Shown: positions 6 to 50,583 of the stretch, in pieces
Layout of the letters: every line of letters begins with the position of its first letter
Position numbering within the stretch: the first letter of the stretch is position 1
IMG/VR virus record: IMGVR_UViG_3300031857_000135
Location: 2,747 to 66,746 of that record
Source: a virus
DNA: 64,000 bases
Reading direction: 5' to 3' (one strand)
Translations under genes and position numbers: made by a program
The notes under the pieces: model-generated
What the model saw: the letters and a program-made list of their open reading frames with translations, nothing else
Told to the model about the DNA's origin: nothing
The model's database searches: none

Positions 6-365
6 ATGGCAGCAGCCCTTCCTACCGATGACGTGGTGGAAGCCCTGTTCCTAATGGACGAACGGGCGGGACTTCTAAACCGCTACGGTGCGAACCTGCC
101 GGATCCAGTTCTCTGCGTCTACGGGGCAGAGAAGTCGGCTGAGTATTCCTGGAATCACGGCGGGGATTACGTCACTGCTTCTATGTTGATGCGCTATTCG
201 GGCAGCACAGCGGTCGAGGCGATGGAGGATGTGTTCTCTGATGACGTGATGAAGAGGTTCAAGGCGGATCCAGTAGGAGCGTTCCAGAAGATGCCGCTCG
301 AGCAGCAGATCTTGGTCTCACGCATGGCGTCCCAGTCCAGGGATACGAACAATGGCGGGTACTGA
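6..365 (+). CDS. C-terminal part of a hypothetical virion-associated protein (probably truncated by the window edge)
   Basis: Open frame at the window start; overlaps the next gene; contains EKSAE (KxA motif). Confidence 0.6.
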   Translation: MAAALPTDDVVEALFLMDERAGLLNRYGANLPDPVLCVYGAEKSAEYSWNHGGDYVTASMLMRYSGSTAVEAMEDVFSDDVMKRFKADPVGAFQKMPLEQQILVSRMASQSRDTNNGGY

Positions 366-2244
366 GTTTAAGACGTCAACCTCACATCCACTCACACTCC
401 TGCGCTCGTACATCCGAACCTTCGGATCAGAAGCGCTGGAGTGGGAGCCATTCGTAGTTAAGAAGGCGCTGGAAAAGAGACTGACATTTTCTCTACCAAG
501 AGTAAACTTTCTTAAACTCTTGGCTGCAATTTCAGTCGCAAATCATGATCAGTTCTGGTCGTCTTGGGAAACCTTTCATACGGTCTCTCAAGCACTGGCT
601 GGAAAGATCCCATCTGTTTCGCACATCGATAACCAGTCTGTTTCAGACTTAATGATCGCCGTAGATGCCGCGCTACGGATTCGCAAGGATCTGGGCTCAG
701 TGGGTGACATACCTCCATTCTCTGAGGAGGTAACTCGCTACATGGCGGCGCAGCTTCATGAGTCTGGGATCTGGTATGTACCAGAGCCACTTGAGTTTTT
801 AAATCCACTGATTTCTGGCGTGACGCAGGTTTGTGGTGAGTGTGGCAACGAAGAGCAGCCGAAAGAGGACGGGCTCTGTAGTTACTGCACTGACAGATAC
901 AATACCGACAGTCTTCTGAAGATGGAACCAGATGAGGAGTTAAAAAAGAAATTCAATGGATCTAAGGTTAAGGTTACTGTTAAGTTTCCAACTGCTGGAG
1001 TTCAGAAGTCTTTAGTTCGCGCCCTAACGCGCGGAGGGGAGACACTTCGAGAGACAGAGGATGATATCTGCGCTGCTAGAATTTTAGAGGGAATAAGAGA
1101 TCTTTCTGCGTATACTGCTGAGTTAGAAGTACAGACTAAAACAGCGGGCCTGGCAACTGTTGCAGGAACTCAAAAGGCTATTGCAACACATAATGCGTTT
1201 AATCCGGACTCCCCTATTGAGTTCAATATACCTGAATTACCAAAAACGAAAGAAGAACAAAATCAACAACCTCAACTAAAGCCACAAAAACCCACAATAC
1301 CGCCTAAAAAGAAAGCTCCTGGTATAGAAAAGTATATCAATCCTCTTAGTTTAGGAGGGACTGCACTATTAGCGGGAGGGTTACTTCGTAGTCCAAATGC
1401 CGGAAAATTTCTCACGGCAGCTAAGGAGGTAGTAACCAAACCTGTCACATCAATCGGCCGTTCTATGCGAGCTGGAGCTAACTACGTCGGTCCTGGCGCT
1501 GACGAGTTTGCTAGACAAGCTGCACAATCAAAGCGCGTAGAGATGATGGGCGAGACATTACGGCAGGCGAACCTCGGTGCTCAGGCAGGCGGAAAATCAC
1601 ATGTAACCGAATTTGAGGCGTTAACAGGGGGACCCGAGGGTAAAACACTTGTTCAAAAGTTGCGTAAATCCGGCTTATTGAGCGCTGGAGAGAAGACCTA
1701 CGATAATGTAAATATCGGATGGGGACTTTCGAGAAGGCTGAATTCTTTAGTGCGAGAAATGGATGCTGCCTCTGCAGCAGGTCGTACCGTGGACTATAAG
1801 AAACTAGAGGGTGCTTACAATGACTTGATTAATGCAGCCAGAAGGCAAGGAAGACCAGCTTCGAGAGGTATTAGTTACTACCTCCCGGGCGAGCGAGCTA
1901 TTGAGGTTGGGGCCCCCGTTCTTACAGGCGCAACCGAGCTCGCCACTAGTGAGGATCCAGATACCGGAGAGGCACGTAGTCTCTCGGAGAGAATTGCAAG
2001 GGGTGTAGCTGCGGGCGGCATCACGGCTGCTACTGGAGCATTGTTTGCCGGCAGAAACCTCGGACTTAGTAAGAAAAACCTGCTTACAGGTGCAGATAGA
2101 TCTACCTTTAGTGCCAAGGGGTTAGTCCCTGCCGCTGCTGGTATGGCAGTAGGCTCGACCCTTGAGAACATCGGTGCCGATGTTGTGGGTGGTGGCACTA
2201 AGCTGGTTGATTCTGCCTTTGGTCAGAGGAAGGAACAGACATGA
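352..2244 (+). CDS. Hypothetical head-associated protein: N-terminal domain with Zn ribbon, then low-complexity Gly-zipper cargo after KTAG
   Basis: 630-aa ORF; CGECG...CSYC; composition changes after QTKTAG (~1140); Gly/Ala-rich hydrophobic segments at the C-terminus; stop overlaps the portal start (ATGA). Confidence 0.75.
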   Translation: MAGTEFKTSTSHPLTLLRSYIRTFGSEALEWEPFVVKKALEKRLTFSLPRVNFLKLLAAISVANHDQFWSSWETFHTVSQALAGKIPSVSHIDNQSVSDLMIAVDAALRIRKDLGSVGDIPPFSEEVTRYMAAQLHESGIWYVPEPLEFLNPLISGVTQVCGECGNEEQPKEDGLCSYCTDRYNTDSLLKMEPDEELKKKFNGSKVKVTVKFPTAGVQKSLVRALTRGGETLRETEDDICAARILEGIRDLSAYTAELEVQTKTAGLATVAGTQKAIATHNAFNPDSPIEFNIPELPKTKEEQNQQPQLKPQKPTIPPKKKAPGIEKYINPLSLGGTALLAGGLLRSPNAGKFLTAAKEVVTKPVTSIGRSMRAGANYVGPGADEFARQAAQSKRVEMMGETLRQANLGAQAGGKSHVTEFEALTGGPEGKTLVQKLRKSGLLSAGEKTYDNVNIGWGLSRRLNSLVREMDAASAAGRTVDYKKLEGAYNDLINAARRQGRPASRGISYYLPGERAIEVGAPVLTGATELATSEDPDTGEARSLSERIARGVAAGGITAATGALFAGRNLGLSKKNLLTGADRSTFSAKGLVPAAAGMAVGSTLENIGADVVGGGTKLVDSAFGQRKEQT

Positions 2245-5053: not shown

Positions 5054-5080
5054 TTATGACCTCACTTCGGAGAAGTTTTA
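5054..5080 (-). promoter_or_regulatory. Putative phage promoter (TAAA-N15-GGTCATAA on the - strand)
   Basis: GTCATAA motif shared with sites upstream of other - strand units; ~44 nt upstream of an ATG (5016) that has a GGAGG RBS. Confidence 0.55.
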
Positions 5081-8000
5081 TGTCTAACATGAACCCGCTC
5101 GAGAGTCACAAGCTGCTCGTTGCCAAGACAAAGGAGGCGATCTCTTCGCATTTCCCGATCGAAGGCAACAAGCACAAGCTCGAGCTAGTTCGCATTGAGA
5201 TTGAAGATGAGTCGGACAAGGGCTCGGCTCAATTCAACCCGGCTAACTACAATAGTCAGATTGATGCCAGGCTAAATGATCGTACCTGGGGTCCAGATAT
5301 TGTTGGTGTATTTAAGCTAACAGATAAGGCATCTGGAAAGGTACTTGATCAGCGCTCTCGTACTCTTGGAAAATTGCCGAAGGTCACCACGCGCTACAGC
5401 TACATCATCAACGGTAACGAGATGCAGCTGGATGGTGTGTTTCGGTTGAACCCAGGCGCTTACCACGCAGAGGCACAGAACGGAGACCTGCTTGCCAAGT
5501 GGAACGTCGCCGCTGGTAGCAAGGTCGGTTCGTTCGATATCTACATTGAGCGTAGAGATCCTAAGAAGCTGGGCTTGATGACGATGAGCATCAAGAGCAG
5601 TGGAACTTCTACAGTTGATATCCCGATCTACCCAGTCCTCAGAGCCCTCGGTGTCGAGGATGCTCAGATTCAACGTGCTCTTGGGGACAAGCTTTTTGAG
5701 GTAAATAGAGACAAGAGCAAGATTAGCGATATCTTAAAATTTCATAAGGCCATCGAAGGTAGGGGCGCCTCCGACTACAAAGAGCCTTCGGTTTCGGAGG
5801 CCGCGAAATTCGCGAAGCAGACTTTTGAGTCTGCAGAAGTTAGCCCTCAAACGATGAAGTCGGCCTTTGGGAAGGAGTTTACCTCTATTACTGGAGAAGC
5901 ACTTCTTCTATCTGCGAAGAAGCTCGTAGACATCAGCCGAGGAGATGTGCCCGAAGATGACCGGCAGTCCCTGTCAAACAAGCGGCTATACGGAATTGAA
6001 GACTTCGTCTCTGAAGAGCTTACACGCGGTAAGACAATTTACGCGCTAACTCGAAAGATTAGAAATAACGTAGATAGAAAGACCACGATTCAGGACATTA
6101 TTCCTGCATCTGCCGCGGGGTACGGAGCTGCAATCCTGAAGCCTTTTAAGGCGGGGCAGTTGCCCACCCAGACAAATCCTCTTCAGTTTTTATCAAACCA
6201 TACGAAGACGACGATTCTGGGAGCTGAGTTCGGTGGAATCAAAGGAGAGAACGTCAATCTCCTCCCCGACAAGATGATCAACCCGTCGCATCTCGGCCTT
6301 CTGGACCCACTTCAAACACCCGAGAGTCAGCAGACTGGTATTCATCTGCACATCCCTCTTGGTGCGCAGAAAGTGGGCCATGACCTTGTTGCGCAGGTAG
6401 TCAATGTTCGCACTGGAAAGATCGAGCGTAAGTCGGCTGCTGATCTCGAGCGCGCCGTAGTCGCCTATCCAGATCAGGTCAAGATTCAGAAGAACTCAGA
6501 CGGCACTGTTAAAGTCACACCATTAGAATCCAATGTCATTGTCTACGATAATGATCGTAATACCTCCAAGAGACCGTGGAAGGACGTAGATTACGTTCTT
6601 CCCTCTGCCAAGCTTCTTTTTGCAGCTAGCGCAAACCTGGTTCCGTTTGTCCAGAACGACAACGGAAACCGCGCGATGATGGCTACCAAGCATCAGGAGC
6701 AGGCTGTCGGCCTCAAGAACCGAGAGGCACCGCTGGTCCAAACTGCGGCAAGTGGAGGACTCGCGTATGAGGATCTAGTAGGCGGTACAGCCTCGATCTC
6801 CTCAAACGCAGACGGAGTAGTCAGCTCTGTGAATAAGGAGGAGATTGTTGTTTTAGGTACCGACAAAAAGAAGTATAGACATGCATTGTACAATAACTAC
6901 CCTTTGAATGGGGCTAAGCATATGCTCCATTCTCAGCCGGTAGTAAAAGAGGGAGACAAGGTAAAGAAGGGTCAGCTCTTAGCAGACTCTAATTTCACTA
7001 AAAATGGTAAGCTCGCATTAGGCACGAATCTAAGAGTCGCGTATATTCCCTATCGCGGCTACAATTTCGAAGATGGTCTTGTGATCTCGGAGTCTGCGGC
7101 AGAGAAGTTGGTCTCGAGCCATCTTCATTCCGTAGAAGTAGAGATGCACCCGAATGTAGTCGTCAATAAAAAGATGTGGCGTCAGTATGCCGGAATGGTC
7201 AAAGCGACGCCGGCAATTCTCCAGAAGCTCGATGATGACGGAATTGTGCGAGTTGGGCAGAAAATAGAGCCAGGCGATGTCCTAATCGCAAAACTTCAAA
7301 AGCAGTCCCTCTCCAAGGACACCGAAGATATTCGTAAGAGACTAAAGGGCGCGGTTCAGGATTACGTAGATTCTTCGGTGAAGTGGGATCACGAGTACGA
7401 TGGAGTAGTTGCGCGAGTTGTAAACAACGGACGCAAGATTGCCGTCTTCATCAGAACTGAGCAGACGATGGAGGTCGGAGACAAGCTCTCTGGACGTCAT
7501 GGTAACAAGGGAATTGTCACTAAAATTCTCCCCGACGATAAGATGCCCAAGGACAAGAACGGGGAGCCAGTTCACATTCTTATGTCTCCTGCTGGCATTC
7601 CGTCCCGTATGAATCCGGGTCAGGTTCTTGAGACCGCTGCTGGAAAGATCGCACTAAAAACGGGTAAGCCATTTGTAGTTAATAATTTCGATGCAGGTAC
7701 AGACTATTCTCAGCTTGTAAAAGATGAACTAAAGAAGCACAAGATTTCAGATACTGATGAGCTCTTCGATCCCGAGACTGGAGAGAGCTTAGGTCAGGTT
7801 TTGACTGGGATGCAGTACATCCTCAAGCTTGATCATCAGGCTGAAAAGAAGATTTCCGCGCGAGGTGGTGGTTTCGGCTACGCATACAAGACGACCGGAG
7901 AAGCCTCGCAGGGATCTGGACTTGGGGAAGGCGGTCAGCGTATCGGAGGCCTCGATACCTACACGCTTCTTGCGCACGGAGCGAAACACAACCTCCGAGA

Positions 8001-11000
8001 GATGCAGACCTACAAGTCCGACCGAGAGCAGGCGGAAGATGTCTGGACTCGCATCATGCGGGGAGAGCGTCCTCCCCCGCCCAAAGTTCCTCGCTCTATG
8101 GAACAGTTCACGCACTATATGCGCGCAATGGGAGTTTACACCGAAAGAAAGGGGCGCGAATACTCCCTTATGCCCATGACGGATAAGCAGACCAAGGCCC
8201 AAAGCTCTGGAGAGCTGGCATTTCCGGAGAGGACCCTCGCAGCCAAGGGATCACTCACAAAGGAGGAGCGCGGAGGCCTTTTCGATCGAACCAAGACCGG
8301 CGGGCTTGAAGGGACCAAATGGTCACATATGGATCTGGGTATGCGGATCCCCAATCCCGTCTTTGAGGAGCCCGTACGTTCTCTTCTCCGCATGCCTAAG
8401 CCGGAGTTCCAGAGACTTCTGACGGCTGAGGGAGCCGTGGGAAGGAAGTCTGGCTTCCAGGTAATCGAGGAGAAGCTTCGAGCCCTTGACGTGAAGAAGG
8501 AGCTAAAAATTGCCGAGAAGGAATTAGATGAGGCCAATGAGAACGAACTGAATGTCGCCTATAAGCGGGTTCGGTATCTCCGCGCATTGGATGAGCTGGG
8601 CATTAAGCCAGTAGATGCCTACACCAACGAAGTCTTGCCTGTACTACCTCCGACCCTTCGAAGGGTGAGTATCGGATTTGACGGGACTCAGATCATTGAT
8701 CCCGCTAACAAGATGTACGCGATTATTGGACAGATGGTAAAGCAGCACGAACAGGCAAAAAAGGAAAATTTACCGATTGGAGAGATTCAGAAGCTCCAGG
8801 CAGAGATTTACGCAACAACCAAAGCTCTCCGAGTCTCAGGCATGCAGATGGAGGGCAAGCAGGTCCCTTCATTAATGGACAAGCTCACAGGGTTGAAACA
8901 GCCCAAGGGCTCATTCTTCCAGTCAGGAGTTTTGGGTAAACGGCAGGATCTCTCAGGTCGCTCAGTCATTACACCAGATCCTGAGATGCCCCTTGATGAG
9001 GTCGGCGTTCCTCGCGAAATGCTGATGGAGATGTACAAGCCATTCGTCATCAAGGAGATGTGGAGAGGCATGGGCCGGGCGACATCTCCAGGTGATGCAC
9101 GCCTGAAGATTAAACAAAATCACCCTGCTGCCAACGAAGCCCTCGAACGAGTTGTCCGTGATCGTCCAGTAATGATGAAGCGGGATCCAGCGCTTCACAT
9201 GTTCTCGATTATGGCCTTTAAGCCCAGAATCATTGAAGGGAAGTCAATCAAGATCCATCCTCTAGTGACCGGAGGTTTTAACGCAGACTTTGACGGCGAC
9301 ACGATGGCTATGTACGTCCCCATTACGGAGGGGGCTGTACAAGAAGCCAAAGCGATGATGCCGTCGAAGAATCTGTTTTCTCCGACTAGTGGCGGTCTGA
9401 TGACTACTCCAAGTCAGGATTCTGTACTTGGTATTTACCAGGCAACTGAGTGGGGCAAGAAGGTTTCGGGCAGCTTTACTGTAGATGAAGCCATCAAGCA
9501 GCTTAAAGCTGGGAAGCTCAAGTCATACGATGTGATCTCGGTCGTCGGCATGAATAAGCCTACTACTGCGGGTCGTTTGATGATTAACAATACTCTTCCA
9601 ACAGAGTTTAAGAATGATGAAGATCTTCTTTACAACCCAGAATTTAGAATGGCTAAGGGCGGCATGAAGCGATTTGCTACCCGCATTGCTCGAGCACAGC
9701 CAGAAGAGTTTGCGAAGATGATCGACGACTGGAAAACCATTGGTTTCCAGCTCGCGTTTAAAAATGGTTCAAGCGTAAAGGTTAATGACTTCCACGATGG
9801 GTTTAAGCTGCGGGATCAAGTACTAAAGAAGTACAAGACAGAAGAGAACAAGATTCTCAGCGGTCCTGGCTCTCGTGCAATTAAGAATGAAAAAATAGTG
9901 TCTTTGTATCAGAAAGCACAGAAAGAACTGAAGCAGGTTGGAGAGACGAAATATAATGCCTCAAAAGATAACGGCATGTGGGAGTGGGCACGTTCTGGAG
10001 CTAAGGGAGATTGGAACCAGTTCGGTCAGATGGTGATGGGCCCAATGCTGGTCCAGGATCCGATGAACAAGACGGTTCCTTTTGCCATCACCAAGTCCTT
10101 TGGTGAGGGACTTCCGGTATCGCAGTACTACACCGCACTTCATGGAGCCCGGAAGGGCACCATTGATCGCGCATCAGCGACGGCAAAGCCAGGTGCGCTG
10201 ACCAAGGAGCTTATTAACACTGTTATTGACAACACCATTAAGTCAAGAGACTGCGGCACTAACCGCGGGGCTCTTCTCTCTGCAATGGAGTCGGACATTG
10301 AAGGCCGCTTCCTCGCTGGAGAAGTTCCGCTGAAGGACGGACCTACTCTTGCGAAGGGAACTCTAATTACGCCTCAGATTAGATCAAAAATTAAAAATGA
10401 CGGCCCAAGAAAGGTTCTTGTTCGTTCTACTCTGTACTGCAATGAGACGAAGGGGATCTGCGCTACTTGCTACGGACTGAGTGAGCGAGGGGCCTTGTAT
10501 CCGGTGGGTACGAACGTCGGAATCATTGCAGGACACGCGCTGGGTGAGCCCATTACCCAGATGCAGATGAGAACGTTCCACACCGGCGGTGTTGGCGGGA
10601 CTAGTGGAGTCAGCGATTATTACACTGCAGCAGAAGACCTCTTCAAAGTACCTCAAAAGCTCAAGGGCGCAGCCACACTAGCTACCGTGAGCGGGAAGAT
10701 CGAAAAGATCGAATCAGATCCCCTTGGCGGTAAAATTGTAACTATTGACGGAAGGAAGCACGTCGTACCATTTACAACGCCTCTTCTCTCCAGCATTCGT
10801 GTCGGTGCTGAAGTAGAGAAGACAGACGCGCTATCTGAGGGTCGCAAAAACCCGCACGATATTCTAAGTATCACAAACAACATGTCAGCGGTCCGCATGC
10901 ACTTGTCGGATTCTTTGAACGAGCTTTACACAGAGACAACGGGAAATGAACGTAGAAGAAATATTGAGACCGTTATCCGCGCGATGACGGATCTCACGAG

Positions 11001-11433
11001 AATTGATGATCCCGGAGATGACACCACATACCTACGAGGTCAGTTAGTTCCATTGTCTGAGATCGAGCTGAAGAACAAAGAACTCCGTGCTATGAGTAAG
11101 CGCGAGATTAAGCACTCGCCCCAGCTCAAGGCCATGAACAAGATGCCGCTTGCTGCCCAGGAAGACTGGATGGCGCGCCTAAACTTCCAGCGCCTTCAAG
11201 AGACGTACACTGAAGGTGCCGCGCAGAACTGGAAGTCTGATATTCACGGTCATCCCATTGCGGGTATCGCACACGGCGCAGAGTTCGGTCTCGAGCCTCC
11301 TGGCAGTCAGCCTTTACCCGCTGCTCCAAAAATCACGGATCGCGTGGTAAACATCCCGAAGGTTGTACCTCCGGGGAATCCAAAACCAACCCTTCCGTCT
11401 CAGAACAAGCCCGGCTTCTTCTCTTTCCTGTGA
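5080..11433 (+). CDS. rpoBC: Fused DNA-directed RNA polymerase beta-beta' (single polypeptide)
   Basis: beta motifs (TPESQQTG, GYNFEDG, GDKLSGRHGNKG, GIPSRMNPGQ, GGQRIG) followed in frame by beta' motifs (LGKRQDLSGRSVI, RDPALH, NADFDGD at 9280-9300, GARKG, GEPITQMQMRTFHTGG); ATG 5080 has a GGAGA RBS (ORF track start 5056). Confidence 0.95.
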   Translation: MSNMNPLESHKLLVAKTKEAISSHFPIEGNKHKLELVRIEIEDESDKGSAQFNPANYNSQIDARLNDRTWGPDIVGVFKLTDKASGKVLDQRSRTLGKLPKVTTRYSYIINGNEMQLDGVFRLNPGAYHAEAQNGDLLAKWNVAAGSKVGSFDIYIERRDPKKLGLMTMSIKSSGTSTVDIPIYPVLRALGVEDAQIQRALGDKLFEVNRDKSKISDILKFHKAIEGRGASDYKEPSVSEAAKFAKQTFESAEVSPQTMKSAFGKEFTSITGEALLLSAKKLVDISRGDVPEDDRQSLSNKRLYGIEDFVSEELTRGKTIYALTRKIRNNVDRKTTIQDIIPASAAGYGAAILKPFKAGQLPTQTNPLQFLSNHTKTTILGAEFGGIKGENVNLLPDKMINPSHLGLLDPLQTPESQQTGIHLHIPLGAQKVGHDLVAQVVNVRTGKIERKSAADLERAVVAYPDQVKIQKNSDGTVKVTPLESNVIVYDNDRNTSKRPWKDVDYVLPSAKLLFAASANLVPFVQNDNGNRAMMATKHQEQAVGLKNREAPLVQTAASGGLAYEDLVGGTASISSNADGVVSSVNKEEIVVLGTDKKKYRHALYNNYPLNGAKHMLHSQPVVKEGDKVKKGQLLADSNFTKNGKLALGTNLRVAYIPYRGYNFEDGLVISESAAEKLVSSHLHSVEVEMHPNVVVNKKMWRQYAGMVKATPAILQKLDDDGIVRVGQKIEPGDVLIAKLQKQSLSKDTEDIRKRLKGAVQDYVDSSVKWDHEYDGVVARVVNNGRKIAVFIRTEQTMEVGDKLSGRHGNKGIVTKILPDDKMPKDKNGEPVHILMSPAGIPSRMNPGQVLETAAGKIALKTGKPFVVNNFDAGTDYSQLVKDELKKHKISDTDELFDPETGESLGQVLTGMQYILKLDHQAEKKISARGGGFGYAYKTTGEASQGSGLGEGGQRIGGLDTYTLLAHGAKHNLREMQTYKSDREQAEDVWTRIMRGERPPPPKVPRSMEQFTHYMRAMGVYTERKGREYSLMPMTDKQTKAQSSGELAFPERTLAAKGSLTKEERGGLFDRTKTGGLEGTKWSHMDLGMRIPNPVFEEPVRSLLRMPKPEFQRLLTAEGAVGRKSGFQVIEEKLRALDVKKELKIAEKELDEANENELNVAYKRVRYLRALDELGIKPVDAYTNEVLPVLPPTLRRVSIGFDGTQIIDPANKMYAIIGQMVKQHEQAKKENLPIGEIQKLQAEIYATTKALRVSGMQMEGKQVPSLMDKLTGLKQPKGSFFQSGVLGKRQDLSGRSVITPDPEMPLDEVGVPREMLMEMYKPFVIKEMWRGMGRATSPGDARLKIKQNHPAANEALERVVRDRPVMMKRDPALHMFSIMAFKPRIIEGKSIKIHPLVTGGFNADFDGDTMAMYVPITEGAVQEAKAMMPSKNLFSPTSGGLMTTPSQDSVLGIYQATEWGKKVSGSFTVDEAIKQLKAGKLKSYDVISVVGMNKPTTAGRLMINNTLPTEFKNDEDLLYNPEFRMAKGGMKRFATRIARAQPEEFAKMIDDWKTIGFQLAFKNGSSVKVNDFHDGFKLRDQVLKKYKTEENKILSGPGSRAIKNEKIVSLYQKAQKELKQVGETKYNASKDNGMWEWARSGAKGDWNQFGQMVMGPMLVQDPMNKTVPFAITKSFGEGLPVSQYYTALHGARKGTIDRASATAKPGALTKELINTVIDNTIKSRDCGTNRGALLSAMESDIEGRFLAGEVPLKDGPTLAKGTLITPQIRSKIKNDGPRKVLVRSTLYCNETKGICATCYGLSERGALYPVGTNVGIIAGHALGEPITQMQMRTFHTGGVGGTSGVSDYYTAAEDLFKVPQKLKGAATLATVSGKIEKIESDPLGGKIVTIDGRKHVVPFTTPLLSSIRVGAEVEKTDALSEGRKNPHDILSITNNMSAVRMHLSDSLNELYTETTGNERRRNIETVIRAMTDLTRIDDPGDDTTYLRGQLVPLSEIELKNKELRAMSKREIKHSPQLKAMNKMPLAAQEDWMARLNFQRLQETYTEGAAQNWKSDIHGHPIAGIAHGAEFGLEPPGSQPLPAAPKITDRVVNIPKVVPPGNPKPTLPSQNKPGFFSFL

Positions 11434-11440
11434 GGTTCCC

Positions 11441-11845
11441 ATGAACAAACTCGCGGCATACCAATACCTTATTGACAATCATCCTCTTTGGGAAAACGAT
11501 TCGTTAGATAAACAGGCAGGTCTAATCTCTAATCTCACTAGCGGTTTAGGGAAGAGTATTGCGTTATCTCCAGTTAAATCATTCGGTACAGGGCTGTCTC
11601 GTGCAGCAAAGGGGTCCCTCTCAGACCTTAGACGGACTGGAGCCACACGGCGATCCTTTCTCGGTCTCGGAGGCGATAAGCTAACAAACAAGGCCGGACT
11701 TGGTGATACCTTAAAATTCTACGGATCTCGTGCTGCAGACAGTACAGGTCAGTTTATTGCTAATAATCCCGGTGCTGCGACAGCTATCGGTGTTGGTGGG
11801 CTAGGAGCTGCCGGATTAGGTACGGGCTACATGCTAACGAGGTAA
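11441..11845 (+). CDS. Small basic putative head-internal protein with MNKLAAY...HPLW...DKQA leader and C-terminal Gly-zipper helix
   Basis: ATG 11441 with GAGG RBS; leader shared with ORFs 47392-47763 and 47826-48173. Confidence 0.75.
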   Translation: MNKLAAYQYLIDNHPLWENDSLDKQAGLISNLTSGLGKSIALSPVKSFGTGLSRAAKGSLSDLRRTGATRRSFLGLGGDKLTNKAGLGDTLKFYGSRAADSTGQFIANNPGAATAIGVGGLGAAGLGTGYMLTR

Positions 11846-18975: not shown

Positions 18976-19013
18976 CTGTGACTCCTGTTATGCTCATCGT
19001 GAGCATAAAACTC

Positions 19014-19040
19014 TTATGACGAGGATTCTATGAGTTTTTC
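19014..19040 (-). promoter_or_regulatory. Putative phage promoter (GAAAAACT...GTCATAA)
   Basis: Motif 45 nt upstream of ATG 18975, followed by hairpin TTATGCTCA-CGA-TGAGCATAA. Confidence 0.55.
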
Positions 19041-20780: not shown

Positions 20781-20790
20781 TTATCCGTAA

Positions 20791-31209: not shown

Positions 31210-31230
31210 TCGAAGCGTTCGCTGTTCCTA

Positions 31231-31263
31231 AGCCCCGGGCCGAGTTATCGGGCCGGGGCTTTT
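31231..31263 (+). terminator. Rho-independent terminator after the MCP
   Basis: AGCCCCGG...CCGGGGCT stem followed by TTT. Confidence 0.8.
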
Positions 31264-31277
31264 AACTTAAAAAGGAG

Positions 31278-32778: not shown

Positions 32779-32785
32779 GGTATCT

Positions 32786-35341: not shown

Positions 35342-38300
35342 ATGGCAAGTGAAAACCGCCCCGGCGTCATCGTAGTTCAGGAGCTCCGCGAGACTCCTGC
35401 TGCAGTTGCCACGCCCACGCTGAACCCCGTGGTTGTTGCTCCGTGCTACCAGATCATCCGGGCTGTGGATGCCTCCGGGTCTATCAACTCCGATGCGGAG
35501 TACACGACCCAGCGCTACACACAGGAGTCTCTGACGATCACGCAGGCAGAGTTTCCTGACCCGCGCGATAACATCGATGAGATCAACATCGATGAGACCC
35601 AGGTCGGTGCTCGCCTCTTCTACGCCGGTGCCCTGACTACGCTTCCGCGGGGCAGCCATGGCAGCACAGGTTCCGCGTTCCTGGCTGCTGCAAACTTCGC
35701 TACTCGGGCCACTGTTGTATTCAACTCAGGTAGCTCGACCTTCGCATTTGGTCCTAGCACGCAGCTGCTGTCTATCAAGGCAAACAGCGCCAATAATCTC
35801 AATCCTTCGGTAGTTGCCTTCACAGGCACTATGACAGCTGCTGAAGTAGCTGCATCTCTTGCCGCCGTTCCAGGTATTGTCGCTTCAGTAGTTAGCGATA
35901 CTGTCGTAGTCAAGAGCCGTACCTTCGGCGCTGCGTCTTCTCTGTACCTGACTGGCAGCGCGCTTCCGGTTCTTACTGCGGTGATGCTCACTCCACTCGT
36001 AGCATCATCAACGTATAGACTTGAGGGCTCGGGTTTCAGAGGTCAGGATGACCTCGACGGAGACCTGACTACGCCATGGATTGAGTTTCATGTCGGCAGC
36101 TACACTGTAGGCGGAGTTGCTACCCCGATTGCTGCTCCGTTTGCCCTCGAGGACAAGGACGGCGCCACGGCGACTCCTGCTGCGATGACCTTCACTGGTT
36201 CAGGAGCGTCGGTTCCCCTCAAGGCGGCAACTGCTACCACTCCTGGAGATGAGTTCTGGGCTGACGGAACTCGCGTGAGTGAGGCATCTGTGACCGCCGT
36301 TGAGGAGGCCCGCTTTAAGCTGGGTATCCTCGACGCAACTCGGTCTACCTTCGACGCGGACGGTAACCTCGTCTCCGCTATCTACTCGACGGTAGAGGTG
36401 AACACGCCCTCAAGCAGCGTTCCGTTTGCTCCGGTTTACGCGTACTTCATCGCGAACAACCTGGTCTGGGGCTCGGTCACTCCTGCTCCAGAGGCCGCGG
36501 AGATCACAGGCATCGATACGAATGCCCTCGCTGCGCAGCCTGCACAGCTAGTGGGGACCGCTTTCGATCCCACCGAGATCACATCACTTGCGGGAGGCAC
36601 ACTGACCTTCCGTATTGTTGAGGATGGGGTCACCCTTGATGACGTGACTCACACCTTTACGTCTTCGGCAACGAGCCTCAGCGCAGCTCTGACTGCTCTG
36701 AATGCCGATGCGAATCTGTCGGCGCTCACGTTCGCCACTGGAGACGACGGCTCCGATAAGATTCTGGTTGTTAAGACTATAAAGAACGGTGCTGATCAGA
36801 GTGTCACGTTCCTCGGAACTGCCTCTACCAGCGTAGGTGCTTCATTCGGTCTCACTTCCGGTGATACTGCTACGGGAGTTGATGTTGAGTTCGCAGAGGC
36901 CGCATCTCTCCAGTCTGACGCTGCCGATCTGGGTGCAGCATCAGGTAATCTCATTGTCAGTGTTACCGTCACTATCGGAGATGTAACTTACGAGTGGGAT
37001 CTTCCCGAAGTAACCAGCTACACAACTGCGACTGCGCTGGCCCAGGCCCTTGCAAGTGGGGCAAGTGCTGTCGGAGGTAAGTACCCTGTTTACTTCAAGA
37101 ATGATTCTGCCCTTCCGCATCTTCTGAATCTAAGTGCCACTGGAGCAGATTCCGCGGCTCGGATTACTTTTGAACTTACTCGAGGCGGGGATGGTATCGA
37201 TCTAGCGCTGACCTCAGATAATGACACTGTTATCGAATTCTCGACGGCTTTATCAGACACCGATGCTGGTGCTGATCTCCTCAAAGGCACTCGTCTCGAG
37301 TTCACCCTGGACAGCAATCCGCACGTCTACGAAGTTGACTTCACCAGTAACTCGCTCCGGGAGGCAGTTGATGCCATCAACGAGGCTGTCGGCGGCGCAG
37401 TAGACATCGCGAGCGAGGATGGTCTGACTCTTGTGATGACCAGCGCGTTCTCTGGCGCGGCATCTGCTGTCAATCTTGATGACTCGAGCCCTGCTTACAG
37501 TGTGCTGTTCGATACTGACAGCGCTGCGGGTTCCGGTAGGCCGAATCCCAGCTTCTACATCGATGGCGAAGGCACTGCGCACATCGGAGCACATGCACTT
37601 CGCAACCGCAGCACAGGCCTACCCCTCGACCTGAGTTCAGGCGGGGCTCGGGTTTATCTCGATTATGTCGGTCTGCGGCTGGATGTCACCGCAGCAGCGT
37701 CCAGCCCATCGCTCCTGACCTTCGACGACGTGGCGACGATGGATGCGGCAATCGGGCCGATCTCCCTGGAGAACCCGCTTGCGCTCGCCTGCTTCCTCAT
37801 GCTGCAGAACACCCCGACACAGGCTGTGTCGGCCCTGGGCATCGAGGCTGTGAACGACGCAGCTCCAATGGGGACGACGACAGCGCACCTCAATGCGCTC
37901 AACTACCTCGAGAGCAAGGATGTCTATGGCATCGCGCCGATGACGGATGATCCTTTCGTCCAGCAGCTCTACTCGGCGCACGTGGAGAGCATGTCCACGC
38001 CTGAGCAGCGTGGTGAGCGCATCTGCTTCCTCTGGCAGGGCGTTCCCACTCGCGCACAGGACACGTCCATCCTGGCTGGATCGGATGCTGAGGTAAACGG
38101 TACAGCCAACAGCATCACGCTGGGTTCAACTCCGATTGAGGGTCTTGCCGCGCTGGGTCTGGATCCTTCGGAGCTGAGCCTTGACGATAATGTCTACCTC
38201 GAGCTGGTGGTTGTCCAGCTCGGAGAGACCAGTGTCTTCAAGTTCTCGGTCTCCCAGGCAAACGGCACTGCGCTGATCCTTAGAAGCTCCTTTGCCTCCG

Positions 38301-39064
38301 ATGAGAACACCGACGGCTTCTACGACACACCCGATCTCGACTGGACGGACGACGACAACCTGAGCGGGATGACCTTTGTGCTCAAGCAGCGCGGCGAGCG
38401 CCTGCTTATCACAGGCACCGAGATCCCCGACCGCAACGCGATTGCCACTACCGCAGCCGCCCAGGGCGATGCATACAACAGCCGTCGGACTTTCCTGCTT
38501 TTCAGTGGGAATGTCGACACCAGCATCGACGGCGTTGTGACTCCTGTTCCGGGCTACTACGCCTGTGCCGCGATTGCTGGAATGGTGGCTGAGCTTGCAC
38601 CTCAGCAGCCCTTCACGCGCGTTTCCATGACTGGCTTCTCGAGGGTGTACGGGACAGACGACACCTTCAGTGAGAACCAGATGGATACGATTGCTGATGG
38701 TGGTCGCTACATCCTGATCAACCAGGGTGGTCGCATCGCTTCTCGGCATCAGCGGTCAACGCGTTCTTCGTCCATCGAGGCTCGAGAGCTTTCAATCACG
38801 AAGGCGATTGACTTCCTGGCGAAGGGTCTGCGGGCAACGAACCGGGTGTACATCGGCCGGTATGTCATCAACCCCGGATTCATCGATCAGCTGGTCATGA
38901 GCAATGAGGGCTTCCTTGCCCGCACTGTTCAGGCTGGCGTCGTGAACGGTGCTGCGCTGAACAGCGTCCTGCAGGACAGCAATGCCCCTGACACCGTGCT
39001 GATTGAAGTCACTGTGGCTCCGGCCTACCCCTGCAACAAGATCCGCATCACCATCGTCTCCTGA
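35342..39064 (+). CDS. Tail sheath protein with large insertion domains
   Basis: N-terminal RPGVIVVQE; C-terminal PGYYACAAIAG, ELSITKAIDF, VTVAPAYPCNKIRITI. Confidence 0.88.
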   Translation: MASENRPGVIVVQELRETPAAVATPTLNPVVVAPCYQIIRAVDASGSINSDAEYTTQRYTQESLTITQAEFPDPRDNIDEINIDETQVGARLFYAGALTTLPRGSHGSTGSAFLAAANFATRATVVFNSGSSTFAFGPSTQLLSIKANSANNLNPSVVAFTGTMTAAEVAASLAAVPGIVASVVSDTVVVKSRTFGAASSLYLTGSALPVLTAVMLTPLVASSTYRLEGSGFRGQDDLDGDLTTPWIEFHVGSYTVGGVATPIAAPFALEDKDGATATPAAMTFTGSGASVPLKAATATTPGDEFWADGTRVSEASVTAVEEARFKLGILDATRSTFDADGNLVSAIYSTVEVNTPSSSVPFAPVYAYFIANNLVWGSVTPAPEAAEITGIDTNALAAQPAQLVGTAFDPTEITSLAGGTLTFRIVEDGVTLDDVTHTFTSSATSLSAALTALNADANLSALTFATGDDGSDKILVVKTIKNGADQSVTFLGTASTSVGASFGLTSGDTATGVDVEFAEAASLQSDAADLGAASGNLIVSVTVTIGDVTYEWDLPEVTSYTTATALAQALASGASAVGGKYPVYFKNDSALPHLLNLSATGADSAARITFELTRGGDGIDLALTSDNDTVIEFSTALSDTDAGADLLKGTRLEFTLDSNPHVYEVDFTSNSLREAVDAINEAVGGAVDIASEDGLTLVMTSAFSGAASAVNLDDSSPAYSVLFDTDSAAGSGRPNPSFYIDGEGTAHIGAHALRNRSTGLPLDLSSGGARVYLDYVGLRLDVTAAASSPSLLTFDDVATMDAAIGPISLENPLALACFLMLQNTPTQAVSALGIEAVNDAAPMGTTTAHLNALNYLESKDVYGIAPMTDDPFVQQLYSAHVESMSTPEQRGERICFLWQGVPTRAQDTSILAGSDAEVNGTANSITLGSTPIEGLAALGLDPSELSLDDNVYLELVVVQLGETSVFKFSVSQANGTALILRSSFASDENTDGFYDTPDLDWTDDDNLSGMTFVLKQRGERLLITGTEIPDRNAIATTAAAQGDAYNSRRTFLLFSGNVDTSIDGVVTPVPGYYACAAIAGMVAELAPQQPFTRVSMTGFSRVYGTDDTFSENQMDTIADGGRYILINQGGRIASRHQRSTRSSSIEARELSITKAIDFLAKGLRATNRVYIGRYVINPGFIDQLVMSNEGFLARTVQAGVVNGAALNSVLQDSNAPDTVLIEVTVAPAYPCNKIRITIVS

Positions 39065-42748: not shown

Positions 42749-44527
42749 TCACCTTCTCAGGTGCGCTTCTACGATCAATCTAGCCGAGTTTACGACTCCA
42801 GCGGTAATGTCCTTCGGTTCGGCGATGAGTGCGTATTGCCGCTCTCCGAACAGCTTGTCGTACCCAGTCTTATTGTTTCCAATCGCGAGGATGGAGAGCA
42901 CGATCCCCTCACCGCGAATCTCTCGAACGACATTCGATAAGTCCTTCAGACCATCGCCTGTGCTGTTCCTACCTCGGAGAAAGCTGGGGAAACCATCTGT
43001 CATCAGGAGGATGGCGCGAGCAGACTTCTTGTGTTTCGCCCATTCAGAGGCCATATCCAGAGCACCGATCAAGTGGGTGTTACTGTTGTTAACCTGAGAG
43101 GAGTTCAGGCTTCCAATCTTAGTAAATGGATAAATGACATCAGAGAATGCCCACAAGTTCAGGCTTACATTGAGGTCCTTACATGCGTGCGCTACATCAG
43201 CAACCGCCTGGTTTACGGCCTCCAGTGGGAACCCAACCATCGAACCACTGACATCTACAACCAGTAGTAACTCCAGGCCTTTGTGCTCCGTTACCTTCTG
43301 AAAGACGGGGATGGAAGACAGGTTCCCGCTAACTCGAGCCTGAATGGCCCTCTGGATATTCAGCCGAGGGCCAAAGCGTGCGGTTGAGAGCTCTTGTTCC
43401 GCCCGGATCTCATCCAGGTATCTGCGAATTCCTTCCGCAGATCTCGAAGGTTTCTCAGGCGGATGCTCGGGGGTGACCAGTCTTACGATCACCTTGCAAT
43501 CTCTGCCAGCCTGAACCAGGTCCGTCTCTTCCTCGTCTTCCTCGTTCTTCGCCTGTTTGCCGAGTTCTGCCTTGGCCGCGGCAATTCGAGCGTTCATCTT
43601 CTCTGCACCATCTTTGCAGAGTTTGGAGAACGAGGTCTCCCCGTTTTCGTCCGCGTCCTCATCACTAGCAGTGATGAGTCTGCGAATCTTCTGCATGGTC
43701 GCAGCAGTTGGCTGCTTTTTTGGAAGAGACTCTTCCTTCTTACCAAGCCCCTCTGACGGAGGAGTGAACTGCTGGGCCACGTCTTTTAGGGCCTTGAGCA
43801 CCTGCTGAGCCTTCTGCTGCCCGGTCTTTGGTGGCTCAGGAGGTGGTATTTCCTGCAGAATCTGATCCGCAATGTCATCGACGAGGCGCGCCGTGATCGC
43901 CAGGCAGGCATGAGCATCGACAAGCTCGACCTGAGCCCGCGCCCGGTCCATGGCCGGCTTGCAGACTTGAAAATGGTTTGGAGCACCTGCAGTGTCAAAC
44001 CCAGATGCGGCTCTTCCTAAGTACGCGCATAGACTAATCTTGGCTGCCTCTTCTCCTTCGTGCTCAGCGATACCTTTCCAGCGCTCGCCCAGGAGCGTCG
44101 CTCCACCGTAATAGAGCTCTCCCCAGATACTCTTACACCTCAAGTCCTCCAGGATGTTCCACAGCCCGTGGAACATGTCTCCCAGCGGACCAGAGAGTGC
44201 TCTCCCCTCAGTGCTAGTTGAGACGATCCTTGCCCTGGTGAGAAGTCGTTCTACAGCCTTCTCCTTAAACGCGGCCATTAGACGTAGATCTGTCTCTGCG
44301 AAGATGTGCGAAAGCTCGTGTTCACAGATGAGATACGCCTCTGGGTCAGACAGTGGAACTCGGACATAAGTCTCGCAGTCTGTGTGCCCTCCGATTGTGG
44401 TATTTTCTAGCTTTATATTCTTGCTCAACAGGGTATTAAACGTATCAACAAGATTCCGCATTCTCTCGATGTTGATTTCTAGTGATGGTGCCTTCATGGC
44501 ACCGAGGTCAAGAGGAGGACGACTCAT
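42749..44527 (-). CDS. vWA-domain protein with N-terminal HExxH metallopeptidase-like motif (CobT/NorD-like partner)
   Basis: CEHELSH, NILEDLR, MIDAS VDVSGSM...LMTDGFP. Confidence 0.8.
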   Translation of the reverse strand: MSRPPLDLGAMKAPSLEINIERMRNLVDTFNTLLSKNIKLENTTIGGHTDCETYVRVPLSDPEAYLICEHELSHIFAETDLRLMAAFKEKAVERLLTRARIVSTSTEGRALSGPLGDMFHGLWNILEDLRCKSIWGELYYGGATLLGERWKGIAEHEGEEAAKISLCAYLGRAASGFDTAGAPNHFQVCKPAMDRARAQVELVDAHACLAITARLVDDIADQILQEIPPPEPPKTGQQKAQQVLKALKDVAQQFTPPSEGLGKKEESLPKKQPTAATMQKIRRLITASDEDADENGETSFSKLCKDGAEKMNARIAAAKAELGKQAKNEEDEEETDLVQAGRDCKVIVRLVTPEHPPEKPSRSAEGIRRYLDEIRAEQELSTARFGPRLNIQRAIQARVSGNLSSIPVFQKVTEHKGLELLLVVDVSGSMVGFPLEAVNQAVADVAHACKDLNVSLNLWAFSDVIYPFTKIGSLNSSQVNNSNTHLIGALDMASEWAKHKKSARAILLMTDGFPSFLRGRNSTGDGLKDLSNVVREIRGEGIVLSILAIGNNKTGYDKLFGERQYALIAEPKDITAGVVNSARLIVEAHLRR

Positions 44528-47391: not shown

Positions 47392-47763
47392 TTAATTCAC
47401 GCTTCTATACAGTGATCCAATTCCATGTTTAAAGGAACTCCTCAGACGCTCGTATCCAAGACCTCTGTTCTCAAGTGCGGATGCTTTTTGAATACGATTA
47501 CGCATCCCACCCGGACCCGTTAAGGCAGCTTGAGCCTGTTCCCTAAGATCCCCCGAAGCTCTTTCTGCTCGATCCTTAAGTCGCCAAAGTTGATTCTGTG
47601 TTTGATCTTGAGCAGTGGTCCTTAGTGAACTTGATGGGAGTGTGTTGATATTTTTAATTCTATTAGAGATTGCTCTTTCAACAAAATTTGGACTCAGCGC
47701 GGATTTTTCCATCCAAAGTGGATGATCAGAAAGAAGCAGGTCATAAGCAGCGAGTTTGTTCAC
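47392..47763 (-). CDS. Putative head-internal protein with MNKLAAY...HPLW..EKSA leader
   Basis: Leader shared with the ORFs at 11441 and 47826; GGGAG RBS. Confidence 0.7.
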   Translation of the reverse strand: MNKLAAYDLLLSDHPLWMEKSALSPNFVERAISNRIKNINTLPSSSLRTTAQDQTQNQLWRLKDRAERASGDLREQAQAALTGPGGMRNRIQKASALENRGLGYERLRSSFKHGIGSLYRSVN

Positions 47764-47825: not shown

Positions 47826-48173
47826 TTACATACCTGGCGGCATCGCTTGATTTTTCAGAAACTGTCCAAAAGGCGTCTGGGACATTCTGTTTAATCCTTG
47901 GTAGGCATCCACCATTCCCTGGCCTACTCGTTTGTTCATGTCATATTTAAATCCCCTTAGTCGTTGTGAGATTGTAGGAGGCCTAGTCATTGGCTTAAGC
48001 GCCGCTGCCTCGAAGGGGGAACGAAATGGTTTGATCATACTCTTAATTCCCGTCCCCACTTGCTGTAAGCCTTGCCCAAATTGCTTAAATCCCAGTATTG
48101 CAACCTTCTCATGGTCTTCCGTCCACAATGGATGCTCTGCTAGGAGCATCTCGTACGCAGCAATCTTATCCAT
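47826..48173 (-). CDS. Putative head-internal protein with MDKIAAY...HPLW...EKVA leader
   Basis: Leader shared with the ORFs at 11441 and 47392; AGGAG RBS. Confidence 0.7.
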   Translation of the reverse strand: MDKIAAYEMLLAEHPLWTEDHEKVAILGFKQFGQGLQQVGTGIKSMIKPFRSPFEAAALKPMTRPPTISQRLRGFKYDMNKRVGQGMVDAYQGLNRMSQTPFGQFLKNQAMPPGM

Positions 48174-49728: not shown

Positions 49729-50031
49729 ATGTCCCTTCGACACAGAACCAACGCCGCTGAGACCGTCCTTCTTCTGTCATCACTTCTGCGTACGCAGGTC
49801 GGAGATGACAACAACCCATCCCCGCTACTGCTTCAGCTTATGAAGCAGGGGAAGTCCCCGGAGGAGATCGAGCTGTCGCAAGACATCGCTCTCCTCGCAG
49901 CAGACATCATGGATGCGCTTGGAGAGGCGTCAGCTAAAAATGAGATGAAGAAGGTAGGCCCGAAGATTCTTGGGCTTCTACTCTTCGCTATTCCAGAGCT
50001 TCAAGAAGATATCGATGCGCTAAAACGCTGA
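49729..50031 (+). CDS. Hypothetical helical protein
   Basis: ATG 49729 with GGAG RBS. Confidence 0.55.
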   Translation: MSLRHRTNAAETVLLLSSLLRTQVGDDNNPSPLLLQLMKQGKSPEEIELSQDIALLAADIMDALGEASAKNEMKKVGPKILGLLLFAIPELQEDIDALKR

Positions 50032-50583
50032 CATTGCGTAGTCAACGGCCCTGCTGGCAAGCGGTCCTTGAGGGTCGAGCGGGTTCATTGTCGGCAATGG
50101 ACTCGCTCCTCCCTCAAAGGTAGCTGCATTAGCTACACGCTTTCTAAGACCCATCTTTTGAAGAAGTGCCTTTGCCGCATCCGCCTTGGCAGTCGTAAGT
50201 GCATAGGCAGGACCCATTACCTGAGCCCCTTCATTCATACTTTGAATCGTCGGGGCGGCTCCGGCTGCCATCTCTTGCAGCCTTCCGCCAGCCCGGCCAA
50301 GTGCCTGCATCGTCCGATTCGGGCTCTGCATGGCCTTCAACGCACTACCAGGCGTTAGTACTGCCTCCTTTTCCATCTCATCCCGGAAGAAATACAGAAC
50401 TTCCGGGCTTAGGATCGAGGCTGTCTTTCGCATCTGGGCCTTAGCCTTCGTAATCTTACCATTCTTGGTACGAATTTTTTCTGTTAAAGAGACACCATCG
50501 ACCCGAGCTTCACGATCTAACGATCCGCGGGTCTTTCCATTTACAGAGGACATTGACGAGGAGATAGACTCAGAGCGGTACAT
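50020..50583 (-). CDS. Putative head-internal protein with KTAS and FFRDEMEKEA motifs
   Basis: Motif shared with the ORFs at 26897 and 40270. Confidence 0.65.
   Translation of the reverse strand: MYRSESISSSMSSVNGKTRGSLDREARVDGVSLTEKIRTKNGKITKAKAQMRKTASILSPEVLYFFRDEMEKEAVLTPGSALKAMQSPNRTMQALGRAGGRLQEMAAGAAPTIQSMNEGAQVMGPAYALTTAKADAAKALLQKMGLRKRVANAATFEGGASPLPTMNPLDPQGPLASRAVDYAMSAF

Follow-up and report, generated by a model that had tools for sequence, protein, structure and literature searches.

The window analysed here, i.e., the whole stretch of 64,000 nucleotides (nt) at positions 2,747 to 66,746 of the IMG/VR record IMGVR_UViG_3300031857_000135, makes up nearly all of a 66.7 kb contig, and its gene content is that of a large tailed phage. 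Its head module contains, in this order, the terminase gene 19030, 21988, 23046, the candidate protease gene 23597, 25499, 27188, 29062, 29455 and the major capsid protein (MCP) gene 30076, each open reading frame (ORF) being named by its first position; the same order is found in Vibrio phage D69 and Salmonella phage Arash. The MCP has 37 relatives, with identities of 38-92%, on IMG/VR contigs of up to 195 kb, and the nearest cultured phages by MCP are the Vibrio phages D69, D181 and D148 (25% identity). The subject of this work is a short motif, Lys, any residue and Ala followed by Ser, Gly or Ala (K-x-A-[SGA]), that recurs in the proteins of this module, together with its relation to ORF 23597, which lies upstream of the scaffold and major capsid genes, as do proteases with the assemblin/HK97/T4 gp21 fold. 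The features are collected in Table 1.

Table 1. Features of the window and their motif content; expected counts, in parentheses, are from shuffles of each protein; aa, amino acids.
Feature	Coordinates	Strand	Description	Motif content
ORF 5056	5056-11433	+	Fused RNA polymerase beta-beta' gene, 2125-aa ORF	2 (3.3)
ORF 11363	11363-11845	+	Paralogue-like, common N-terminus with ORFs 47392 and 47826	
ORF 14861	14861-16366	+	501 aa, outside the core head block	9 K-x-A, 8 K-x-A-[SGA] (0.8)
ORF 19030	19030-20754	+	Large terminase (PF05876 at 4.6e-8, phrog_675 at 2.2e-56)	0 K-x-A-[SGA]
ORF 21988	21988-23049	+	353-aa scaffold-like protein	12 K-x-A, 10 K-x-A-[SGA] (1.1)
21988, residues 38-68	22099-22191	+	Segment between the first two sites	
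ORF 23046	23046-23597	+	183-aa head-module protein	K28, K35; 2 (0.2)
ORF 23597	23597-25492	+	631-aa candidate head-maturation protease	Three K-x-A-S sites
23597, first site	23705-23716	+	SKTAS	K37
23597, residues 204-241	24206-24320	+	Conserved Cys/His pattern	
23597, second site	24473-24484	+	MKIAS	K293
23597, third site	24785-24796	+	VKTAS	K397
ORF 25499	25499-26851	+	450-aa Ala/Glu-rich head protein	9 K-x-A, 7 K-x-A-[SGA] (1.6)
ORF 26879	26879-27178	+	99 aa; 23-aa predicted propeptide	One K-I-A-S at K21
ORF 27188	27188-28846	+	552 aa	10 K-x-A, 4 K-x-A-[SGA], in the N-terminal 246 residues
ORF 29062	29062-29442	+	126 aa, coiled-coil-like, just upstream of the MCP block	5 K-x-A, 3 K-x-A-[SGA] (0.3)
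ORF 30076	30076-31209	+	MCP, 377 aa; PHROG major head protein, weak (E 8.6e-4)	Single site
MCP site	30142-30153	+	K23-T-A-A (TKTAA)	K23
ORF 32753	32753-33307	+	184 aa, downstream of the MCP	K29, K52; 2 (0.4)
ORF 35342	35342-39064	+	Tail sheath, 1240 aa (phrog_279 at 1.4e-10, residues 1045-1238)	0 K-x-A-[SGA] (0.7)
ORF 42749	42749-44527	-	592 aa, von Willebrand A domain at the C-terminus; right of the tail genes	
ORF 47392	47392-47763	-	Paralogue-like	
ORF 47826	47826-48173	-	Paralogue-like	
ORF 50623	50623-52779	-	Complete GyrB-type topoisomerase subunit (ATPase, Toprim and C-terminal domains), right of the tail genes	

The window has 165 ORFs of 80 aa or more; 68 non-nested ones were chosen from these, and pattern counts were compared with those obtained after shuffling each protein. 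When all 8000 patterns of the form a-x-b-c were enumerated, with no motif presupposed, K-x-A-S ranked first (32 seen vs 7.09 expected), and the bare K-x-A was sixth among the 400 a-x-b patterns, with a modest window-wide excess (131 vs 100.2). As a positive control, the same enumeration on T4 gp20, 67, 68, 21, 22, 23 and 24 placed I-x-E first (29 vs 13.8) and L-x-E fourth, which together are the known motif of the T4 gp21 protease; the enumeration is therefore able to find a real protease motif.

We then compared groups of genes by means of 1000 shuffles each, both global and local within 30 residues. The nine head ORFs from 21988 to 30076 contain 20 K-x-A-S where 1.4 are expected, and ORF 14861 contains six against 0.2; neither count was reached by any of the 1000 shuffles of either type. 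The remaining groups were at chance level, namely the tail set (2 vs 1.0), the left set including the RNA polymerase (1 vs 2.0), the 16368-21306 set (0 vs 0.5) and the right-hand set with the replication genes (3 vs 2.1). The enrichment of head over tail and non-structural genes proposed in the original prediction was thus borne out. That prediction had also seen K-x-A in about 20 ORFs spread over the whole 352-50583 span: K-x-A-[SGA] does occur in 26 of the 68 ORFs, but lies above chance in only about ten, and the signal is confined to 14861-16366 and 21988-33307, far less than that span. Its counts for ORFs 21988, 14861, 25499 (given as 25511), 27188 and 29062 (given as 29077) hold within one or two, and the SKTAS, MKIAS and VKTAS sequences around the protease domain and TKTAA in the MCP, at K23, are present. 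The tail sheath, described as almost free of the motif, has none, but since it contains only 1.4% Lys its lack of sites carries little information.

The consensus of the 40 sites in the ten carrier ORFs reads hydrophobic-Glu-Lys-x-Ala-Ser-Ala, in which, for a cut after the first Ala (P1), the hydrophobic residue occupies P5 and Glu P4. Glu is found at P4 in 15 of the 40 sites, Leu or Phe at P5 also in 15, and the residue following the proposed cut (P1') is Ser in 26, Ala in ten and Gly in four. Between the fixed Lys and Ala any residue is allowed, and a small one follows. Only three of the 780 possible site pairs have similar flanks, all from a single triple repeat in ORF 25499, so internal duplication is the source of few sites.

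Site maps were drawn by computing the fragments that a cut after the Ala of K-x-A would produce. Predicted propeptide removal accounts for several proteins: the MCP would lose 25 residues, ORF 32753 54 residues at its N-terminus, and ORF 23046 a propeptide of about 37 aa, its sites directly preceding, in the alignment, a hydrophobic stretch and a conserved domain. The candidate protease would be divided into pieces of 39, 256, 104 and 232 residues. For the scaffold-like protein 21988 the predicted products are eleven pieces of 19-61 aa, and ORF 27188 would give a chopped N-terminal part of 246 residues and a site-free C-terminal part of 306 aa. Six of the seven sites of ORF 25499 lie within its first 135 residues; between residues ~24 and 146 this protein has three copies of LFEK[AT]A[AS]AEG[VI]DL[ND]D, each with one site. 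In ORF 14861 the predicted cuts fall after residues 5, 40 and 64, followed by a core of 300 aa and then by five C-terminal sites; these sites are retained in seven related IMG/VR sequences of 69-85% identity, in which the middle residue varies, and neither Pfam nor PHROG has a match to the protein. For the multi-site proteins in general, scans of both databases were uninformative, and for ORF 29062, a candidate scaffold component, Pfam gave nothing beyond weak coiled-coil matches. By analogy, the site maps would correspond to ordinary propeptide removal and scaffold chopping, resembling what is found in T4 and SPN3US.

Conservation of the motif was examined in the 37 related loci, over 10 kb to each side of the MCP; there, the orthologues of the carriers retain the motif and those of the neighbouring genes do not. 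In counts that are inflated by shared ancestry, K-x-A-S occurs 178 times vs 6.2 expected in 28 orthologues of 21988, 69 vs 2.6 in 30 of 29062, 62 vs 4.4 in 26 of the protease 23597, 52 vs 3.8 in 16 of 25499 and 6 vs 1.0 in six of 32753; for K-x-A-[SGA] the figures are 33 vs 10.7 in 25 orthologues of 23046 and 11 vs 2.1 in 12 of 26879. The sheath (1 vs 1.7 for K-x-A-S, nine orthologues) and the terminase (0 vs 1.1, 12 orthologues) show no such excess. In a reduced set consisting of the window and at most ten diverse loci, the carriers still have 88 K-x-A-S vs 4.7 expected over 32 sequences, and the other structural genes one vs 4.2 over 75 sequences (P = 0.08). In the MCP, a K-x-A stands at the same N-terminal position in 29 of 30 distinct sequences with 38-92% identity. 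In the 21988 family alignment, with identities down to 31%, all 16 members carry 4-11 sites, which form 23 positional clusters: one universal, eight intermediate and 14 present in at most four sequences. The density of sites is therefore kept while their positions turn over, as would fit a short functional motif in disposable linkers.

The motif is also found at greater distance. In nine of 11 diverse loci, no pattern in the 10 kb upstream of the MCP ranks above K-x-A-S, which is second in one further locus; in the most distant locus it is replaced by K-x-A-A or K-x-A-Q. In Vibrio phage D69 it occurs 20 times vs 4.2 expected over 28 coding sequences (CDS), and in Salmonella phage Arash it is again the top pattern (13 vs 1.73 over 11 CDS); in both phages the same syntenic genes carry it as in the window. 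Their MCPs, about 25% identical to that of the window, have the site G-L-[VT]-K-E-A-G-A at K27.

The product of ORF 23597 is laid out as a propeptide (residues 1-39), a catalytic domain (~40-295) and two helical regions (296-399 and 400-631). Pfam gives no match to it, and PHROG just a weak one of unassigned function. We found 231 close homologues, and a profile of the N-terminal domain retrieved 3725 representatives (50% clustering, E ≤1e-3) among 1.84 billion proteins. By tblastn, the domain matches phage G gp19 (31.5% identity over ~190 residues, E 1e-13), Arash gp222 (2e-28) and its D69 counterpart (7e-30). Judged by this significant similarity of the core domain, the family is phage G gp19-like, and the protein of phage G is termed a head maturation protease in passages of PMC12484599.

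Four groups of residues, H137-H138, S194-M-G-x-K, D237-G-R and F250-F-D-x-S, do not vary in any of the 47 sequences of one alignment or the 13 of another, the latter including members of 33-45% identity. The sequence has the His-then-Ser order of capsid-assembly serine proteases, which suggests a catalytic role for these residues. Inteins interrupt relatives at three insertion points, after H138, after G196 of S-M-G and before C204; inteins favour such places in enzymes. The intein-bearing homologues (P0056, P0081, P0085, P0088, P0094, P0109, P0115, P0116 and P0118) measure ~1010-1046 aa, their inserts carry Pfam Hint, intein-splicing and LAGLIDADG domains, and split matches were seen in many more of the 150 best profile hits. 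Residues 204-241 contain a conserved pattern, C204-x2-C207, C218-x-H220 and C241, which from its sequence suggests a metal-binding insert within the protease domain; the most distant members, L027 and L032, have lost the second Cys and have a 40-residue insertion.

The full-length AlphaFold2 model of 23597 has a predicted local distance difference test (pLDDT) score of 77, with eight segments below 50 that comprise 73 of the 631 residues. Three of these segments, 33-41, 291-306 and 397-402, each hold one of the three K-x-A-S sites. With the full 631-aa model, Foldseek returned nothing at E ≤0.001, and a second structural search with it was dominated by the helical region 306-392 and uninformative on the catalytic domain; residues 38-296 were therefore folded alone (pLDDT 79.6, predicted template modelling score 0.75). 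With this domain model, the proteases of Kaposi's sarcoma-associated herpesvirus (KSHV) and varicella-zoster virus (VZV) appeared at ranks 16-22 in Foldseek, and VIA-align placed the VZV protease first of 48,161 chains (Z 4.3, root-mean-square deviation 3.8, 113 aligned), with the human cytomegalovirus (HCMV) protease at Z 3.3 and T4 gp21 at Z 3.2. In the ESM Atlas the nearest cluster is a 'Gp19 family protein' one (0.96); the named Peptidase_S78 (0.92 and 0.91) and S77 (0.91) clusters are leads only. From its position, the invariant His and Ser, the sites flanking its own domain and the recurring weak fold matches, we treat 23597 as a putative head-maturation serine protease; it is not a demonstrated member of S21, S77 or S78.

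The motif and the enzyme family go together well outside the window. Sites flank the protease domain in Arash gp222 (K30, K218) and in the D69 protease (K27, K214), and in phage G gp19 sites of the form phi-x-K-x-A-[SA], phi being a hydrophobic residue, lie before and after the core (K43, K248 and K274). We selected 139 new representatives of the protease family, of which 130 have at least 400 aa. A K-x-A is present within the first 55 residues in 125 of these 130, as compared to 24.6% in shuffles; its usual place is close to residue 30, with phi-E-K-T-A-[SGA] as the context, and the P1' residue among the 125 is Gly in 32, Ser in 32 and Ala in 24. Over all 139 representatives K-x-A-S occurs 326 times vs 42.6 expected. 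The motif therefore travels with the enzyme family far beyond the clade of the window.

The scaffold-like protein 21988 is a predicted partner of the protease. A complex of the protease domain with residues 1-140 of 21988, both partners being entered as family alignments, was predicted with a score of 0.82, the best of three controls scoring 0.00; at that score, a calibration that is approximate here, as own alignments were used, retained 58 of 80 solved complexes, as well as 2 of the 110 mismatched pairs. The three runs have at least 45% of their contacts in common, with a partner pLDDT of at least 70. The confident interface is formed by residues 71-75, 158-160, 236-240 and 262-269 of the protease (full-length numbering) with residues 45-65 and 72-82 of 21988, and it uses the invariant residues of both families. 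The 21988 family has 32 invariant columns, including the motif residues K35, A37, S38, K112, A114, K264 and A266; the docking segments comprise nearly all the others (L44, T45, E47, H48, R51, C53, E54, M55, Y57 and H58, and further E62, R73, F77, D78, P79 and P80). The segment of residues 38-68, between the first two sites, has two Cys and three His, which might form a metal site, is near-invariant across orthologues of 31-67% identity and is in predicted contact with the protease. Arash gp220 is a homologue of 21988 (E 2e-6), and both it and the D69 counterpart have the same first site and following helix. On the strength of the complex model, 21988 is probably scaffold-like, bringing the protease into the prohead before being destroyed itself.

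We consider it probable that K-x-A|[S/A/G] is the recognition site of a head-maturation protease that removes propeptides and shreds the scaffold-like 21988. Judged from the sequences, the best explanation is that this protease is the N-terminal domain (residues ~40-295) of ORF 23597 and that its site often reads phi-E-K-x-A|S. The reading is supported by the family-wide link between motif and protease gene, by the sites in the linkers of the protease, by the conservation of the site in the MCP and by the chance level of the motif in non-head genes. Cleavage itself, and with it the catalysis and the fate of the fragments, is what we infer from the enrichment, location and conservation of the motif. 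The T4 (L/I-x-E), phiKZ-like (A-x-E) and herpesvirus (V/L/I-x-A|S) enzymes read P3 and P1 and ignore P2; by analogy with this P3-x-P1 pattern, the scissile bond would lie after the Ala. Inside the prohead, the protease would free itself at its three linker sites, after being recruited, probably, by 21988 through the conserved docking peptide between its first two sites. Short N-terminal propeptides would then be taken off the MCP and several minor head proteins, and 21988, 29062 and the N-terminal parts of 25499 and 27188 would be cut into small peptides, the core leaving or collapsing before DNA packaging.

A wider reading can be offered only tentatively, and we hold it to be possible though rather doubtful: the large protease family would use one code, phi-E-K-x-A|[S/A/G], that has co-evolved with a partner of the 21988/Arash gp220 type. 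The conserved features of this partner might then be just a docking peptide clamping an exosite and a changing array of cut sites, and after cleavage the 31-aa docking peptide might stay on the enzyme as a tether or regulator.

The proposed system shares several features with known ones. As in T4, the protease is encoded in the head module, the motif follows a P3-x-P1 pattern and sites are dense in the scaffold or core (T4 gp22 has 16 [LI]-x-E vs 5.7 expected); according to the T4 record, gp21 cleaves the MCP and the vertex protein and degrades the scaffold. It differs in having Ala at P1 and Lys at P3 instead of Glu at P1 and Leu or Ile at P3, in the lack of detectable sequence similarity between gp21 and 23597 (including no Peptidase_S77 match), and in the helical C-terminal extension of ~335 aa and, in part of the family, the Cys-rich insert of 23597. 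In SPN3US, according to the accessible portion of PMC10052503, cuts follow A-X-E, several motifs occur per propeptide, the enzyme cuts itself and nearly all cuts remove N-terminal propeptides. Processing of many head proteins at a three-residue motif would be common to phiKZ gp175, SPN3US gp245 and the window, here as a prediction only; the motif is A-x-E there and K-x-A here, 23597 belongs to a different, unannotated protease family, and the processing proposed for the window is read from the sequence alone, not from mass spectrometry. As in giant phages, RNA polymerase subunits are listed among the particle proteins of Arash in the available text of PMC10585845.

Herpesviruses make assemblin as a pUL26-type protease-scaffold fusion with Ala|Ser release and maturation sites. 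In 23597, too, a long helical C-terminal part follows the predicted protease domain at the N-terminus, and directly behind this domain lies a putative release site whose proposed scissile bond is Ala-Ser; further similarities are the first rank of the VZV protease in VIA-align together with the recurrence of the HCMV and KSHV proteases in the lists. The window differs in having Lys at P3 in place of Val, Leu or Ile and dozens of sites in many proteins instead of two or three, and the structural match stays below the level of a shared fold. Phage G gp19 shares the homologous catalytic core flanked by K-x-A sites, but has only 300 aa, stands alone and lacks the long C-terminal extension; the phage G head module, gp19 and the portal apart, has no clear motif excess and its MCP no K-x-A.

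Several results weigh against the recognition-site reading. The evidence for the fold of these proteases, a beta-barrel core surrounded by helices, is slight: T4 gp21 takes Foldseek ranks 1-3 with the domain model at E 0.07 and a probability of 0.25, and all VIA-align Z scores are below 5, tied with unrelated ferredoxin-like folds and below the level at which a fold is called. The hhalign probability of the family against T4 gp21 is 0.2, none of 47 aligned members matched S21, S77 or S78 at E ≤5 or any other protease model of Pfam, and a sequence profile search of the PDB with the protease alignment gave chance helical matches only. In the predicted complex, the catalytic Ser and His are outside the interface, 21988 sitting on an exosite with no site in the active centre; the model therefore supports association, not cleavage. 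The shared ancestry behind the orthologue counts counts here too, and the avoidance of the motif by non-substrate structural proteins is hinted at as a non-significant trend only. The phage G head module has no motif-like a-x-b-c pattern in its top list, K-x-A itself occurring 28 times vs 16.7 expected, mainly in gp19, gp21 and the portal. Finally, in the virion table of Arash, as far as given in the available part of PMC10585845, the multi-site proteins Gp220-Gp225.1 appear at 80-100% coverage, which at face value would speak against their complete cleavage or loss; that table is not decisive either way, because it lists 100% coverage for two-peptide proteins and includes many replication enzymes. 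The accessible text of the same paper makes no mention of protease or cleavage.

The original prediction held that the 23597 protease acts on a K-x-A code and that many genes are polyproteins; the former, indirectly supported, is the best explanation of our data, whereas the site maps do not support the latter. The released peptides would in that case be functional cargo that stays in the capsid or passes into the host, and the about 11 peptides of 19-61 aa expected from 21988, the almost invariant 31-aa piece at its residues 38-68 and the C-terminal modules that some of its orthologues add after a K-T-A-[SG] site would suit such a role. We nevertheless find it unlikely: the invariant piece is accounted for by the predicted docking on the protease, the other inter-site segments of 21988 are poorly conserved apart from the motif, with sites that turn over as disposable linkers would, most other substrates have a simple N-terminal propeptide pattern, and Pfam and PHROG detect no peptide function. 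It is less likely still that K-x-A-S is an uncleaved linear motif for capsid targeting, scaffold-to-shell binding or lysine modification. Its position in disordered linkers and its turnover would be compatible with this, as would the high coverage of multi-site proteins in the particles of Arash, at least in the part of PMC10585845 cited above, but the motif flanks the catalytic domain of the protease and marks the MCP N-terminus, which is the pattern of self-processing and propeptides, and its P3-x-P1 form with a small P1' is like that of known capsid protease sites, such as A-X-E in SPN3US (PMC10052503, available part). Moreover, the predicted docking contact uses another segment of 21988 and not the motif, and ten copies in 353 aa are hard to square with binding signals.

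That a different enzyme, of the host or of the phage, cuts the sites, or that the bond cut is a different one, such as that behind Lys or behind the Glu before it, is in our judgement very improbable. The catalytic role of 23597 is indeed an assignment from indirect evidence, and the Glu before Lys in 15 of 40 sites, with a hydrophobic residue before it, resembles phi-x-E. Glu is missing from the other 25 sites, however, K and A being fixed by definition in all of them, and the motif follows the protease family across phages of Salmonella, Vibrio and the Bacillus group and in the 139 metagenomic representatives, which argues against a host enzyme. We give hardly any credence to an excess that is a by-product of composition, of helix structure in Ala/Lys-rich coiled coils or of internal repeats. 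The carriers are Ala-rich (13-17% Ala) and the triple repeat of 25499 includes the motif, but composition as the source is rejected by the shuffles, global and local, and internal repeats by the scarcity of pairs with similar flanks. In addition, the Ala-rich ORF 40524 (21.9% Ala) has one site vs 1.7 expected, the sites lie in low-confidence linkers and not in helices, and the same four-residue word occurs in unrelated proteins and distant phages.

Some features of the window stand apart from the head module. The polymerase ORF 5056 contains Rpb2 domains 6 and 7 (residues 585-1028) and Rpb1 domains 2, 3 and 5 (residues 1294-1985) and is not enriched in the motif; in Arash the beta and beta' subunits are separate and, in the available part of PMC10585845, of top abundance in the particle preparation. 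The sheath profile phrog_279 covers just the last ~200 residues of the 1240-aa protein. The proteins of ORFs 11363, 47392 and 47826 share the N-terminus M-x-K-[LI]-A-A-Y...(H)PLW, and H-x-L-W ranks second among the enriched a-x-b-c patterns (5 vs 0.38); the start of 11363 is probably placed ~26 codons too far upstream. The K-L-A-A or K-I-A-A of these three proteins was rejected as a cut site, being part of the conserved paralogue N-terminus.

Head maturation at short motifs is textbook knowledge for T4 and phiKZ-like phages, where each motif came from laborious protein chemistry on one cultured phage. In the literature, most subscription journals not being covered, we found no description of a K-x-A or K-x-A-S capsid-protease motif nor of the specificity of this family, only the A-X-E work on SPN3US-type phages. 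What appears to be new is thus the specificity, the size of the Pfam-unmatched protease family and the predicted docking peptide, the process itself being known.

Here, K-x-A followed by a small residue is readable from the sequence alone and is tied to a Pfam-unmatched family with thousands of metagenome members. If the recognition-site reading is true, the mature ends of capsid, scaffold and internal proteins would become predictable across this group of uncultured phages of 160-200 kb, and functions would be found for head genes of Arash, D69 and G that now carry the labels 'hypothetical' or 'structural'. A type with a basic P3 and a small P1, near the Ala|Ser rule of the herpesviruses, would likewise be added to the known specificities of capsid proteases, and the predicted docking peptide offers a concrete handle on how such proteases enter proheads. 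Should the more doubtful, family-wide code also prove true, the mature virion proteome would be readable from the sequence for thousands of uncultured large phages.

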